A stretch of 64,000 bases of DNA. Origin: Escherichia phage vB_EcoM_SQ17. This document shows, in pieces, positions 35,434-42,630 of this stretch. Below the pieces are notes generated by a model. That model was not told the DNA's origin and did no database searches. It saw only the letters and a list, made by a program, of their open reading frames with translations. The DNA lies in sequence record MW882907. The stretch is one strand, 5' to 3'. The translations under genes and the position numbers were made by a program. The stretch's first letter is position 1. Each line of letters begins with the position of its first letter.

Positions 35434-35918
35434 ATATACGCTTTCCAAGTTCCTGTTTTAAATGTTGAGATTACGCGTTTCGCGCGATTAGGTGTCTGAC
35501 GATACCACTTAGATTGGGCTAGATTTACTGCCGCTTCGTCCCAACGTTTCTGTTGAAGCATACGAAGAGAATTAGTAAAACCAGCGACGCCTGCTACACC
35601 CATTTGGAAGACCATATTGACCAATGCACATCGACGAACTGCATCTAAAGAATCATATACCGGTTTAAGTTTAGCATTACCCAAGATTCCGCGAACAGCT
35701 TTATCAACATCTTCATTAAATAACTTTTCAGCCTCATCAAGGGTAATTGTACCGTTGCATTTACGTCCGATCATTCTGTCAAGTTCAGCTTTAGCTACGG
35801 CTAAAGACGGGTTCTTTGTTACTAAATGGCCTATGCCAATCGTCCAAAAGCCTTCAGTGTCTTTGTATAAAGACAGTCTAAGACCTTCGTCATTACGAAG
35901 CATTTCAAATATATTCAT
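35430..35918 (-). CDS. e: lysozyme (endolysin) e
   Basis: ATG at 35918: [32 protein letters not shown]... T4-lysozyme fold with catalytic E11/D20 context. Confidence 0.9.
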
Positions 35919-35952
35919 AATACCTCCCACGTTTATAGGAGGTATTTATTAC

Positions 35953-36426
35953 TTATAGGATGGTAGTGAGCACCTTATATAATGATTTGCCCATTACATA
36001 TTCCCATTGAGAAGGTTTAATTAAAGCGAATGCATCAAATTCAGGAATCTGTCGTCCGTCTGGGAACGTATGATAGGAATTACAAACACTGTTTCTGAAT
36101 TGCTCGTGCTCTACAGGGATGGTATATAAGAACAGATGAATATTCTTATTGTCTGAGTAATGATGATCACCTAGGTCTTTCAGGAAGGCAGGGTCATATT
36201 GTGTAAACCCGGTTTCTTCTTCGCATTCACGAATAGCGGCTTCGATAGGAGATTCGCCGGGCTCGACACGACCTTTAGGAATATCCCACCGATGAGCTAA
36301 AGAACCTTTAGGACGAGAACCAGTTACACGCCCCATGAATAATTCTTTATCTTCGGTAAGGAAAATAATACCAGCTGATAGTTCTTTCACTTTATTTTTC
36401 TTACTCATCATCTCAAATTCCTGCAT
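35953..36426 (-). CDS. nudE: Nudix hydrolase NudE
   Basis: 157-aa ORF with Nudix box GRVEPGESPIEAAIRECEEETG. Confidence 0.8.
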   Translation of the reverse strand: MQEFEMMSKKNKVKELSAGIIFLTEDKELFMGRVTGSRPKGSLAHRWDIPKGRVEPGESPIEAAIRECEEETGFTQYDPAFLKDLGDHHYSDNKNIHLFLYTIPVEHEQFRNSVCNSYHTFPDGRQIPEFDAFALIKPSQWEYVMGKSLYKVLTTIL

Positions 36427-36806
36427 TCGGTAATAAAACGTTCAACTTCATTATTCTTGGCCTTTATCTTGTCTTTATGTTCTTGTAAACTACTTTTAAT
36501 AAGATTAATAATGATGGCAGCGGTACCGCCGCCAATGATGCCACCAACAACACTTATGATAATAGATGCTAATAAGATAGCAATAATATCAACAAAACCG
36601 AAAGAACTCACCTTAGTACTGAAAAACCATATAGACGGTACAAATATAATCCATCCTGTTATCCATTGACACTTATTGAAAAACTTTTCAAGCTCAGCTT
36701 GAGTTGTTCGTATTACTTCATCGATAGGTTGATATCCATTAATGTATCTGTTCACGATAATACCTGCTGGCTGGTCGATTTTAAATTCTTGGCAAATACG
36801 TTTCAC
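36408..36806 (-). CDS. membrane protein
   Basis: 132-aa ORF, no ATG (GTG start), two hydrophobic helices and glycine zipper VVGGIIGGGTAAIII. Confidence 0.4.
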   Translation of the reverse strand: MKRICQEFKIDQPAGIIVNRYINGYQPIDEVIRTTQAELEKFFNKCQWITGWIIFVPSIWFFSTKVSSFGFVDIIAILLASIIISVVGGIIGGGTAAIIINLIKSSLQEHKDKIKAKNNEVERFITECRNLR

Positions 36807-36887
36807 TAAGTAGGATGGACATCCTGTCCAATCTACTGAATAGTATGAAATACCTTCATTGATTAGACCAATATGTTTTGTTAATCA

Positions 36888-37574
36888 TTACCAGCCTTCC
36901 ATAGGGAATTCCAGATAAACTTGAGCATTGACACGAATTTCATTGGTAATCTTTTTAACTCGGTCTGTATTACGAGATACACGTCCGAACCAACGCCATC
37001 CATTACTAATTGCACGAGAACCAGTGTGCCATGTTTGCCAATCAAACTGAAGAAGAGTACGATCTGGAGCTTCCCATTTCTCTAGTTCACCTTTTTCAAT
37101 TTTTTCGAGGACTTCTTTGTGCCACTGACGATAGATAAGTTCGCCATCAGGAATCTGACTGAACTCTGCAGTTCCTGTTGCAAAATGAGTAGGACACACG
37201 TCAGCGTTAACAAGACCAAGAATATGTTCAGACAAATAGCGAGGATTGTCATAATCAGGTTGTCCTGCAGTAATAAAGTGTTGACCAACTGGAATATCAG
37301 GGCGTGGTACATCATCATGGTGATATCCAGGAATAGCAGGATACCAACCAGGCATCAGCATGTGGACTCGTGAATCAAATACTACATCAGAGTCTTTCCA
37401 ATCGTCAGGAAGATTTTGGATAAAGCTACGAGTAATTGGGCCGCCATTATCAAAAGCAAAATTCAAATCGCAGTTAAAGAACATAGGCTCGTTTTTAATC
37501 TGGTCGTTTTTAATCGCATGAGCAAAACCACCTACTGCACGAGCTTGACTATTAAACACTTTAGAACTATTCAT
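36888..37574 (-). CDS. hypothetical protein (possible 2OG-Fe(II) oxygenase-like; weak)
   Basis: 228-aa ORF, ATG start; His/Asp cluster GYHHDD and later WHTGSRA are the only suggestive motifs. Confidence 0.5.
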   Translation of the reverse strand: MNSSKVFNSQARAVGGFAHAIKNDQIKNEPMFFNCDLNFAFDNGGPITRSFIQNLPDDWKDSDVVFDSRVHMLMPGWYPAIPGYHHDDVPRPDIPVGQHFITAGQPDYDNPRYLSEHILGLVNADVCPTHFATGTAEFSQIPDGELIYRQWHKEVLEKIEKGELEKWEAPDRTLLQFDWQTWHTGSRAISNGWRWFGRVSRNTDRVKKITNEIRVNAQVYLEFPMEGW

Positions 37575-37575
37575 A

Positions 37576-37881
37576 TTATTTTCCTCGACATTCTTTAATG
37601 AAATTTTCTAGATTGGTAGATTCAATAGCTTTTTTACGAGCTTCCGCGTGTTCTTCTTCAGACAATTTACGTTTATAATTGACCCAGACATTATGGTCGA
37701 AACTAGTCGTGGCATATAATAACAATGCTCCAACGAATAGCAAAAACGGCGATAAGAATACAAAACCAGGAACACCATCCATATCGTAAGCCTTTTGTAA
37801 TACTGCAACAGAAAGAGCTGCGTAAAAAGGTGATGCAAATATTGTTAAAAGACCGATTCGATTGGTTTCTGTTAATTTCAT
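37576..37881 (-). CDS. membrane protein
   Basis: 101-aa ORF with two hydrophobic helices, ATG start, early promoter upstream. Confidence 0.5.
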   Translation of the reverse strand: MKLTETNRIGLLTIFASPFYAALSVAVLQKAYDMDGVPGFVFLSPFLLFVGALLLYATTSFDHNVWVNYKRKLSEEEHAEARKKAIESTNLENFIKECRGK

Positions 37882-37909
37882 AATATTCTCCTCATGTTTT
37901 AATAGGACT

Positions 37910-37940
37910 ACTATAACATAGTCCCTATAATTGTGTAAAC
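37910..37940 (-). promoter_or_regulatory. T4-type early promoter
   Basis: Minus strand GTTTAC, spacer, TATAGT; ataggactactataacatag repeat family. Confidence 0.5.
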
Positions 37941-37952
37941 AGTTTTGTGAAG

Positions 37953-38909
37953 TTATTTGAAAGGTTTTACCATATGGAAATTTTGTTTGAAACGTTTGAC
38001 GTAATCGTCATGTCCTAAGCTTTGGTACATACTTACTACTTTGCTGTAGTTTTCCCAGGCATACTCACGGAACCAACCAGAGGTGATGCTTGTGCAGACT
38101 TTTTCCAATGCCATCATGAAACTGGCTTCAGGGTTAATTTTAAAGTCATTAGGAATTTGAGAACGTTCTAATGCTAGTACACATGATTCTTCGTATACAC
38201 CGGCCAATTTGACCATTTCTGGTAATGATTCAAACTTCTCGCGTGAGGTCATGACTTCAGAACCGTCTTTCATATAAAATGTATACGCTGGACAGTCTGT
38301 TAGTGCAATGGCTTCATGAATAGTATCATGGTCATATGTATAGATGTCATCTTTAAAGAACGCACTTTTAGAAGTGTCAAGAACCGGGTGAGCATAGTTC
38401 AAGGTTTCTTTCTGGCGTTTCAGCATAATTTCAGTAAGTTCATCGTTCAGTGTAACACCTTTACCACGAAGATACTGAATATGGTTCATAGTCTTTAAAA
38501 AGAATGGATTATTTTTCTTGAAACGATGAGACATCTTAATGGCAAGACATATCTCAGGAGTTGCCCAGTAAAACCCGTTCAAACGGTCTTTAGTCAAATT
38601 TTTCTTGGCGTATTTTAAAAGGCCATAAGAAGACGTGAAATCTTCAGGAGTGAGTTCACCGACTAATTCACGGACATTAGTGATTGCCGGAACAATATAT
38701 GCTTCAAAATGAGTTTCGCGTCCATTATGGAAGCATTTGAAAACTTGGACATCAGGGTTATCTTGATGAACATATACACCCATCATTTGATTTTTGAATG
38801 CATTCCAAGAACCTTGGTCTGCAATAAAGTCCCAGTCACTATTTTTGATAGCGTTAGAATCAATAAGACCATGATAGTGAAGTGCACGAGAACCAATAAC
38901 TAACATCAT
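37953..38909 (-). CDS. hypothetical protein (possible NTase-fold; weak)
   Basis: 318-aa ORF, ATG ATG start; N-terminal IGSRALHYHGLIDSNAIKNSDWDFIAD loosely resembles G-S...D-x-D nucleotidyltransferase motif. Confidence 0.5.
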   Translation of the reverse strand: MMLVIGSRALHYHGLIDSNAIKNSDWDFIADQGSWNAFKNQMMGVYVHQDNPDVQVFKCFHNGRETHFEAYIVPAITNVRELVGELTPEDFTSSYGLLKYAKKNLTKDRLNGFYWATPEICLAIKMSHRFKKNNPFFLKTMNHIQYLRGKGVTLNDELTEIMLKRQKETLNYAHPVLDTSKSAFFKDDIYTYDHDTIHEAIALTDCPAYTFYMKDGSEVMTSREKFESLPEMVKLAGVYEESCVLALERSQIPNDFKINPEASFMMALEKVCTSITSGWFREYAWENYSKVVSMYQSLGHDDYVKRFKQNFHMVKPFK

Positions 38910-38933
38910 AATATTTTCCTCGGATTAATTAAC

Positions 38934-39185
38934 TTAAATTTCACGACATGCGATATCATATTCATCCCAGAGGTCATCATGTGAAGCCTCTACCAATGGA
39001 ACGATTGTACCATTTATGTCTTCGTTATAAGGGCAAATTGTACAGTGTGCATCTTCAAATCGGATGCCTTTGTGTTCAGATTTTTTATAACGCATATCGA
39101 ATATCTTTGCAAACTTTTCACGAGTAATGGTTTTAGCAACCACTTCGGTTCCGATACTTTCGTAATAAATCATTGTGGACTCCAT
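38934..39185 (-). CDS. hypothetical protein
   Basis: 83-aa ORF, ATG start, Cys/His-containing. Confidence 0.45.
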   Translation of the reverse strand: MESTMIYYESIGTEVVAKTITREKFAKIFDMRYKKSEHKGIRFEDAHCTICPYNEDINGTIVPLVEASHDDLWDEYDIACREI

Positions 39186-39201
39186 TTAATTTGATAGGAC
39201 T

Positions 39202-39231
39202 ACTATAACATAGCCCTATCTTGTTGTAAAC
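39202..39231 (-). promoter_or_regulatory. T4-type early promoter
   Basis: Minus strand GTTTAC, spacer, TATAGT. Confidence 0.5.
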
Positions 39232-39235
39232 TGTT

Positions 39236-39433
39236 TTAGCAAGAATAACTAGATGATACCCAGCCTTGAACAGTAATGCTATTATTGGATAATGAGATCG
39301 CGTCCTGGAGATTCAGACCTGCGTTATCTTCAATCCACAATGTAACTTCTTCGCGTTCTTCTGTTGCAATTTGGAACAGGTTTTCCAGAGCAGCTACTGC
39401 CGTACGTACAGCACAATCTAATTCACGAGACAT
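39236..39433 (-). CDS. small protein, C-terminal GW-x-SS-x-x-C family, copy 1
   Basis: 65-aa ORF ending ...ITVQGWVSSSYSC. Confidence 0.45.
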   Translation of the reverse strand: MSRELDCAVRTAVAALENLFQIATEEREEVTLWIEDNAGLNLQDAISLSNNSITVQGWVSSSYSC

Positions 39434-39442
39434 ATGGTTTCC

Positions 39443-39715
39443 TTAGCAAGTGTGAGAAGATGCAATCCAACCACCAGTTTCGAGGCTCAGGTTGTAGTCG
39501 TATTGGTAAACGTCAGCCCATTCGGCATAGCCGTTTTTTGTACAACGTTCAAGATCGGCTTTAAGTTGTCCGGGTGAATGATAGGTTCCACCCATACCAT
39601 AAGCTGGATACAAGTTGAATGTTGTGTTTTGTTTATCAGCAATTTCTTTGGCAGCCTCAATAGCTGCATAGATTTTTGCTACGGCTTCAGCCAGTTCGGT
39701 TTGTTCTTTAGACAT
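39443..39715 (-). CDS. small protein, C-terminal GW-x-SS-x-x-C family, copy 2
   Basis: 90-aa ORF ending ...ETGGWIASSHTC. Confidence 0.45.
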   Translation of the reverse strand: MSKEQTELAEAVAKIYAAIEAAKEIADKQNTTFNLYPAYGMGGTYHSPGQLKADLERCTKNGYAEWADVYQYDYNLSLETGGWIASSHTC

Positions 39716-39768
39716 AATGATTCCTTAGCACATCGCAGAAGACGAAACCCAAGCACCTTTGGTAATAG
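39716..39768 (-). pseudogene. remnant of a third GW-x-SS-x-x-C family gene (C-terminal fragment only)
   Basis: Frame without start codon encodes ...FIPSITKGAWVSSSAMC then TAA; upstream in-frame stop. Confidence 0.3.
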
Positions 39769-39798
39769 AGGGTATGAATTAATAATAACACATAATTC

Positions 39799-40314
39799 TT
39801 AAAGCAAATCAATCATTTTAACGGTTGGCAAAACGATTTCTTCTTCAATATAAGCAAATTCGACACGTTCAACTACACGCAAGAAATCATAATCATAATA
39901 TTCAGAAGCATGGCCAAGAATATCAGTGAGACCTTCTGATACCAAATATCCATTCTCACGGAACAGGTCAAATACACGTGATTCGTCTTCTTCAGATTTA
40001 TTACCGAGGTCGACTTCAATATCAAAGACCTTTTTAATGAATTCTGGATAAAGCTGGTCCGAGAACAGTCCTTCAACCAAGTATTCATAGATTAAAAGCG
40101 AGCAATCACTGAATAGTGTATTACCACAGTAACGTTCAGCTTTAGTACTAGAATGACGACTCTTAAATTTCTTCAAGAGATATTTAAACTGTTGGATCTC
40201 ATGCTCTTCTACACCAAATAATGTTTTGGTTTTATAATTGTCGCCATCATTTTCCCAAGTAGTGACATCAATTACGTAACCTTTAGGAATTGTACTGCCT
40301 AAACAAATATTCAT
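39799..40314 (-). CDS. hypothetical protein
   Basis: 171-aa ORF, acidic. Confidence 0.5.
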   Translation of the reverse strand: MNICLGSTIPKGYVIDVTTWENDGDNYKTKTLFGVEEHEIQQFKYLLKKFKSRHSSTKAERYCGNTLFSDCSLLIYEYLVEGLFSDQLYPEFIKKVFDIEVDLGNKSEEDESRVFDLFRENGYLVSEGLTDILGHASEYYDYDFLRVVERVEFAYIEEEIVLPTVKMIDLL

Positions 40315-40318
40315 TTAC

Positions 40319-40609
40319 TCACCGTACCATATTAATGTAATTATATTCAATGCAACGCAATTTCAAAGGATTCTTGAAAATATCATATTCAAGAGGGCCT
40401 TTTTCTGTTTCAATAAAGAAATCAAAGTTAACTGTGTTAAATTTACCATCTTCACAGAGTAATTTAACCTGTGAAGACGAACGGTCGATATAAACCTTTT
40501 CAACTTCAAAAATAGTCAAAATACCATAGTCATCGACCAGTGCTTTAGCTGCACGTTGATCGCTTTCATATCCATTCTCGACAGATTTTACTTTAGCATA
40601 AAGAATCAT
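40319..40609 (-). CDS. hypothetical protein
   Basis: 96-aa ORF. Confidence 0.5.
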   Translation of the reverse strand: MILYAKVKSVENGYESDQRAAKALVDDYGILTIFEVEKVYIDRSSSQVKLLCEDGKFNTVNFDFFIETEKGPLEYDIFKNPLKLRCIEYNYINMVR

Positions 40610-40986
40610 GAGTGTTCCACCACTTCAAAAGTATGTGCACTGACAATCTGGTACCAGTCAAAATTTTCTTCAGCATTTTTGTAGATTTCACGAAGAGCTT
40701 CAACAGTTTTTCCTGTAGCAACAAGATCGTCAATACCGCCAAGAGGATAACAGTCGTAACCAGCAAACAGAAGGAAATTAATAGTTTCTGTAGGTTCTGG
40801 ATGCAGAATACCGTTATCATCTACCACTTCAAAGAAAGTGTAAGAAGGAGTACAAGTTTTAATCCAAGCCCAGGCTTGAGCCGCTGAATCAAATGGTCTG
40901 CGTATCAAACGACAATCAGGGTCTTTAGAAGGATTTGCTTCAAAATCCGCATATACTTGATATTTCATTTTACTCACCTTTTGCAA
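40606..40986 (-). CDS. hypothetical protein
   Basis: 126-aa ORF, overlaps neighbours by 4 nt and 17 nt. Confidence 0.5.
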   Translation of the reverse strand: MQKVSKMKYQVYADFEANPSKDPDCRLIRRPFDSAAQAWAWIKTCTPSYTFFEVVDDNGILHPEPTETINFLLFAGYDCYPLGGIDDLVATGKTVEALREIYKNAEENFDWYQIVSAHTFEVVEHS

Positions 40987-41155
40987 TTTTATCCATAACG
41001 ATAGCGATTAAGCCGATTAGAAATGCTACTACCAATGAGATAGAATTTTCTGTTGTTGTCAGTAGTCCACAAATGAATCCTACAAACATCGAAAAACTAA
41101 AAGCCATTGAAGCAATTACTACAGCAACATTACGAATCAGTTCAGCGCGTTTCAT
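40970..41155 (-). CDS. small membrane protein
   Basis: 61-aa ORF with two hydrophobic helices. Confidence 0.45.
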   Translation of the reverse strand: MKRAELIRNVAVVIASMAFSFSMFVGFICGLLTTTENSISLVVAFLIGLIAIVMDKIAKGE

Positions 41156-41183
41156 TTTATTCTCCTCAGTAGTTGATAGGGTA

Positions 41184-41213
41184 ATAGTATCACTACCCTA
41201 TCTAAAAGTAAAC
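41184..41213 (-). promoter_or_regulatory. T4-type early promoter
   Basis: Minus strand GTTTAC, 18-nt spacer, TACTAT. Confidence 0.5.
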
Positions 41214-41224
41214 GGTTTTATAAA

Positions 41225-41533
41225 CTATTTTATTCCGCGTGATGCAATCGTATTCTGCCGTTTAACGCCAGTTTGTTTAAAGTTATGATTGTCGAGTTGA
41301 TCGGTACGAGCAACTCCGAATGATGATTTAATCTTAGCTTTAGATCCTTTAGTTATAGAAATATACATCTCGGGAGCCCCTTTCTTAAAGTCCGAAGCAA
41401 TTACTTCAACACCGTTCTTAGCAAGTGACCTCAGAATTGCTTCCGCATACTCATCATCAAGACCCGCTTGAGTATGAATAACGAATGTCTTTGGCGCAGC
41501 TGCTTCACAGATAAATTCTTTAAATGTTTTCAT
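41225..41533 (-). CDS. internal protein (capsid-targeted) family member
   Basis: 102-aa ORF starting MKTFKEFICEA. Confidence 0.6.
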   Translation of the reverse strand: MKTFKEFICEAAAPKTFVIHTQAGLDDEYAEAILRSLAKNGVEVIASDFKKGAPEMYISITKGSKAKIKSSFGVARTDQLDNHNFKQTGVKRQNTIASRGIK

Positions 41534-41563
41534 TTTATTTTCCTAATTAATTTTGATGAGATA

Positions 41564-41593
41564 ATAGTACCACAACCCTATTTAAAAGTAAAC
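41564..41593 (-). promoter_or_regulatory. T4-type early promoter
   Basis: Minus strand GTTTAC, spacer, TACTAT. Confidence 0.5.
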
Positions 41594-41866
41594 TCATTTT
41601 AAATAAATTGCGTATTTTTTATAACCCGCTGTCTCATGTCGAAGACCCTTATCATTAGCAAAACGCTCAATGTTGTTAATTTGATTCTGGTCAAGTTCAG
41701 AGATGTCAAACACGAAATAGTTACGTTTGTTACCAACTGTTACATAGTCAGTTAAATCAATACCATATAGGTAATTGATGTTATCAATCATAGTCTTGAC
41801 AGCTTTGCTAATTTTTACTTTTTCATTAAAAGCAGCTTCATTGATAAATTCTTTAAATGTTTTCAT
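41594..41866 (-). CDS. internal protein (capsid-targeted) family member in the ipI position
   Basis: Track ORF trimmed to ATG: MKTFKEFINEAAFNEKVKI...; directly upstream of 57B as ipI is in T4. Confidence 0.6.
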   Translation of the reverse strand: MKTFKEFINEAAFNEKVKISKAVKTMIDNINYLYGIDLTDYVTVGNKRNYFVFDISELDQNQINNIERFANDKGLRHETAGYKKYAIYLK

Positions 41867-41902
41867 TTTATTCTCTAATTTCACATTTGTTTTGATAGGA
41901 TG

Positions 41903-41942
41903 ATAGTAACACACCATCATCCTTATGTAAACTGTTTTGTGA
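41903..41942 (-). promoter_or_regulatory. T4-type early promoter
   Basis: Minus strand GTTTAC, spacer, TACTAT. Confidence 0.5.
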
Positions 41943-41944
41943 AA

Positions 41945-42630
<686 letters not shown>

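Follow-up and report, generated by a model that had tools for sequence, protein, structure and literature searches.

The window, i.e., the whole 64,000-nt stretch of DNA analysed here, comes from an RB69-like phage (Mosigvirus) with 94-96% identity to LF82-41 and phi25-307. Between nudE and 57B, positions 36427..41944 hold 13 genes, all on the minus strand and ~90% coding, which bears out the wall-to-wall arrangement described in the initial annotation; its boundaries are likewise borne out by PHROG matches of both flanking genes (Table 1). The gene at the identical position to 57B in relative L008 carries a precomputed Pfam assignment (PF23474 Acb1), placing 57B in the Acb1 family. The same annotation considered the region to be filled with unrelated ORFs. 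This does not hold, as 12 of the 13 have colinear RB69 counterparts in the same positions, with 64-100% amino acid identity, and three are orthologues of T4 genes (tRNA.2, tRNA.3 and tRNA.4); e.2 is labelled T4-like in the RB69 annotation too.

Table 1. Genes, early-promoter cassettes and junction features of the nudE-57B interval (positions in the window)
Feature	Position	Strand	Match or evidence
nudE (Nudix hydrolase), left flank	35953..36426	-	phrog_1185 nudix hydrolase, E 3e-74
e.2-like membrane protein, 5'-truncated, 132-aa GTG ORF	36408..36806	-	phrog_2203
228-aa protein, RB69 ORF132c homologue	36888..37574	-	99.6% to RB69 ORF132c
101-aa protein, RB69 ORF133c homologue	37576..37881	-	phrog_9798; 98% to RB69
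Early-promoter cassette TTTACA-N18-TATAGT, TG-extended	37910..37939	-	stem-loop over -10, fold z -1.95
318-aa protein, RB69 ORF134c homologue	37953..38909	-	DUF7277+DUF7275
83-aa ORF, RB69 ORF135c homologue	38934..39185	-	phrog_3723; 98.8% to RB69
Early-promoter cassette	39202..39231	-	strong stem-loop over -10; -16 kcal/mol, z -5.8
65-aa GWxSSxxC-family protein, RB69 ORF136c	39236..39433	-	phrog_4882; 100% to RB69
90-aa GWxSSxxC-family protein, RB69 ORF137c, left of deletion	39443..39715	-	phrog_899; 95.6% to RB69
Non-coding 3' stub (..GAWVSSSAMC*) of deleted third GWxSSxxC paralogue, 35 nt	39725..39759	-	
Deletion junction, single hybrid copy of direct repeat TATTACYRAAGGTGCT	39752..39767	-	BLAST overlap, five-way alignment
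8-bp exact core AAGGTGCT, putative crossover site	39752..39759	-	alignment
171-aa ORF, RB69 ORF151c homologue, right of deletion	39799..40314	-	phrog_2290
tRNA.2 orthologue, 96 aa	40319..40609	-	85% to T4 tRNA.2, 95% to RB69
tRNA.3 orthologue, 120 aa	40606..40968	-	39% to T4 tRNA.3, 92% to RB69
tRNA.4 orthologue, 61 aa	40970..41155	-	84% to T4, 100% to RB69
Early-promoter cassette with stem-loop	41184..41213	-	fold -16.4 kcal/mol, z -4.4
Internal head protein gene, 102 aa	41225..41533	-	phrog_2667 internal head protein, 2.5e-40
Early-promoter cassette, no significant stem-loop	41564..41593	-	fold z +0.6
Second internal head protein gene, 90 aa from MKTFKEFINE	41594..41866	-	phrog_7673
Early-promoter cassette with stem-loop, upstream of 90-aa internal protein gene	41903..41932	-	fold -16.2 kcal/mol, z -3.8
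57B, right flank	41945..42400	-	phrog_755, 1.9e-65

At the left end of the interval, comparison with L002 shows that the original ATG of e.2 (~36886) now opens a frame closed by a stop after 10 codons, the result of a net change of -11 nt relative to LF82-41. The remaining product, which has a single long hydrophobic stretch (residues 61-104), aligns with positions 33-166 only of the phrog_2203 membrane-protein profile. Hydropathy gave two TM-like segments in the 101-aa protein and two in the tRNA.4 orthologue, and the membrane proteins noted earlier were confirmed (132, 101 and 61 aa). The 228-aa protein had been called His/Asp-rich; its composition does not agree (H 3.9%, D 7.9%), but a family-invariant HHDD motif is present (H85 H86 D87 D88, with H183 and R194 also invariant). 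It had no match in a Pfam search. When its AF2 model (pLDDT 89.6) was searched against the PDB with Foldseek, the best 50 matches were all Fe/2OG oxygenases (E ~1e-3, TM 0.3-0.43), and the model suggests a PhyH-type Fe(II)/2-oxoglutarate oxygenase. The 318-aa protein, initially given a loose NTase-like motif, is predicted to be a Pol-beta-superfamily nucleotidyltransferase with a MenT-like fold. The GWxSSxxC C-termini were found as described, reading QGWVSSSYSC in the 65-aa and GGWIASSHTC in the 90-aa protein.

On the right-hand side lie the 171-aa gene, whose homologue in relatives is immediately upstream of tRNA-Met, and the orthologues of tRNA.2 (Pfam Phage_T4_Y07B in relatives), tRNA.3 and tRNA.4. 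The length of the tRNA.3 orthologue is counted from an ATG, the ORF list extending to a TTG at 40986, and it is called as 120 aa in L008-L011. Both internal-protein genes of the initial annotation were recovered. The 102-aa product is 64% identical to RB69 ORF156c and starts with the N-terminal targeting sequence MKTFKEFICE, while the 90-aa gene has no RB69 counterpart, is absent from phi25-307 and has a different gene at its position in LF82-41. A length of 108 aa was rejected for the latter, as a promoter lies within the 5' extension and positions 1-90 of the phrog_7673 profile correspond to residues 19-108.

Five clear T4-type early-promoter cassettes were found rather than the six or more proposed initially, and the stem-loop fold is significant in four of them. 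GTTTAC-type sites number 19 in the window (17 on the minus strand). The genes that remain in the interval are the normal Mosigvirus complement, organised in early transcription units under these five promoter/stem-loop cassettes.

ARAGORN detected no tRNA gene in the entire 64 kb window, hence none in 36427..41944, a result that covers 64 kb of a genome of ~165 kb in which a tRNA gene may lie elsewhere. No Rfam family matched the window at gathering threshold, and a permissive Rfam scan of 35900..42500 returned only three sub-threshold matches, all eukaryotic snoRNA/lncRNA noise. The same Rfam scan recovers 8/8 T4 tRNAs and 2/2 RB69 tRNAs at the homologous loci, and ARAGORN detects tRNAs in relatives L001-L004, so the claim that no tRNA cluster lies between nudE and 57B was confirmed. 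The choice of T4 as the reference was less apt, since the Mosigvirus norm here is two tRNAs: the RB69 locus has two and not eight, these being the only two in that phage, and segB and rnaC/rnaD are not annotated there.

The cause of this absence, missed initially, is a discrete deletion of 4.5-5.5 kb. In RB69 and relatives, a block of this size separates the homologues of the 90-aa GWxSSxxC and 171-aa genes, which are 83 bp apart in the window. The block contains a third GWxSSxxC paralogue, e.3, e.4, e.5, e.6, frd.3, e.8 and several ORFs/ORFans, together with tRNA-Arg(UCU) and an annotated 'tRNA-Met' with a CAU anticodon; the deletion took out both tRNA genes along with some ten small genes next to them, and the block was not relocated anywhere within the 64 kb window. 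Both ends of the block carry a 16-bp imperfect direct repeat in relatives (TATTACYRAAGGTGCT; 14/16 match, 8 exact), with one copy inside the 3'-terminal part of the third paralogue and the other in the leader that directly precedes the first tRNA. When the window is aligned with L001 and L002 by BLAST, the segments on the two sides overlap precisely at the single hybrid copy that the window retains.

The polarity of the change is given by the surviving stub, which equals the 3' end of a 101-aa CDS in L001 and L002 (RB69 ORF138c/139c) and has no in-frame upstream start codon in the window. Furthermore, T4 likewise carries e.3-e.8 beside its tRNAs, and the block is therefore ancestral. The reverse reading, i.e., that the window is the ancestral state and the block an insertion in the relatives, could appeal to the mosaic nature of the locus, where several other presence/absence differences exist among relatives (the 228-aa gene, ORF130c, a 66-aa ORF and internal-protein genes). 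It is already disfavoured and extremely unlikely, given that a start-less stub is retained of a gene that is whole in relatives, that e.3-e.8 and the tRNAs are syntenic in T4 and RB69, two different genera, and that the block or an intact boundary copy occurs in every other haplotype examined. The block lies between the same two genes, with tRNA-Arg and tRNA-Met, in L001, L002, L007-L010 and L012-L016, and is found in RB69, phi25-307, LF82-41 and every other fetched haplotype reaching this spot; an intact left boundary copy is present in 8/8 further haplotypes with an identical 228-aa protein.

None of the 152 matching phage records has the junction itself, nor does any IMG/VR contig or JGI metagenome contig, and among the 30 sequences tabulated its k-mer occurs only in the window and Logan contig L011 (SRR27732229). 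A misassembly, or a deletion variant present as a minority in a mixed lysate of a phage that really has the tRNAs, would be compatible with breakpoints falling on a repeat, with the suspiciously short record (156.7 kb) of another tRNA-less phage, EP32B, and with the known appearance in T4 stocks of phages deleted for this non-essential region. However, we consider this unlikely, as the repeat is just 16 bp with two mismatches, below usual assembly k-mers, and a mixed population would be expected to break the contig at the junction. The Logan contig matches the window at 100% identity for 2360 bp and runs unbranched through the junction, although it may share reads with the window's assembly and so may not be biologically independent; it ends only at repeated promoter cassettes (39196 and 41555).

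All DNA between the repeat copies would have been excised by recombination or by replication slippage, with the crossover probably within the 8-bp exact core; the repeat being short and imperfect, either mechanism may have acted. Excision of the block as a PeSL-type cassette, through recombination of flanking promoter/stem-loops (Arbiol et al. 2010, PMC2839356), has in its favour the abundance of such cassettes in the region, most with significant stem-loops, and the ~60 bp of repeated cassette sequence that bound the internal-protein gene differences from phi25-307. Yet the breakpoints lie outside the promoter cassettes, one inside the 3' end of a coding sequence, the other in the tRNA leader, and share 16 bp compared with the ~100-bp PeSL, making this very unlikely for the tRNA block. 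PeSL exchange would account well for the internal-protein cassette swaps at 41557..41844. Overall, the interval very probably corresponds to the hyperplastic nudE-57B region of an RB69-like Mosigvirus whose tRNA genes were lost by one deletion, and the earlier interpretation of the locus is partly supported.

The CAU tRNA of the relatives is the orthologue of T4 tRNA-Ile, which reads AUA (97% identity), and has been classed as a lysidine-type tRNA-Ile (Nolan et al. 2006, PMC1524935). AGA and AUA are used at 9.1 and 13.2 per 1000 codons, respectively, and the phage would now rely on the rare host tRNAs argU and ileX/Y for these codons. The 90-aa and 65-aa GWxSSxxC genes may now be read through from the 171-aa gene, under the promoter at 41213. 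The conserved e.3-e.8 were lost too and would evidently be dispensable on this phage's host.

Compared with known systems, the RB69 nudE-57B region (NC_004928, 65.7-77.6 kb; ORF130c-ORF156c) has the same gene order, strand and flanks, with e.2, ORF132c-137c, ORF151c, tRNA.2-tRNA.4 and an internal-protein gene encoding 64-100% identical proteins. However, ORF130c is missing from the window, as is the whole stretch from ORF138c through tRNA-Met, its e.2 is frameshifted near the 5' end, no window ORF matches RB69 ipI and a different, 90-aa internal-protein gene is carried. The T4 e-57B region shares the e.3-e.8/tRNA/tRNA.2-4/ipI/57B synteny but has eight tRNAs, rnaC/rnaD and segB, and is without the ORF132c-137c genes. 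EP32B (Escherichia phage vB_EcoP_EP32B, OR544955) is a Mosigvirus record that also has no tRNA in this locus, its deletion beginning in the same leader/tRNA-Met area; however, ~18 nt of its tRNA-Met are fused into the 65-aa gene, the 90-aa gene is also lost and the junction sequence is unlike that of the window, so its tRNA loss is an independent event. Like the PeSLs of T-even internal-protein loci, in which an early promoter is paired with a stem-loop that overlaps the -10, the window's cassettes repeat between small genes and bound internal-protein presence/absence differences, but the tRNA block was not deleted through them and one of the five has no significant stem-loop. In the classical studies of Wilson, Kim and Abelson (1972), Owen and colleagues (1983) and Singer and Westlye (1988), the T4 tRNA region was reportedly non-essential in laboratory hosts and deletions are said to end characteristically in short direct repeats; those mutants were laboratory-selected. 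The T4-like phages RB49 and phi1 are naturally without tRNA genes (zero in RB49; Nolan et al. 2006, PMC1524935), but RB49 represents a distant lineage, whereas the loss in the window is recent, the tRNA pair being present in all other sampled members of its lineage reaching this spot. The deletion is an ordinary type of event in a known variable region and not a new gene system.

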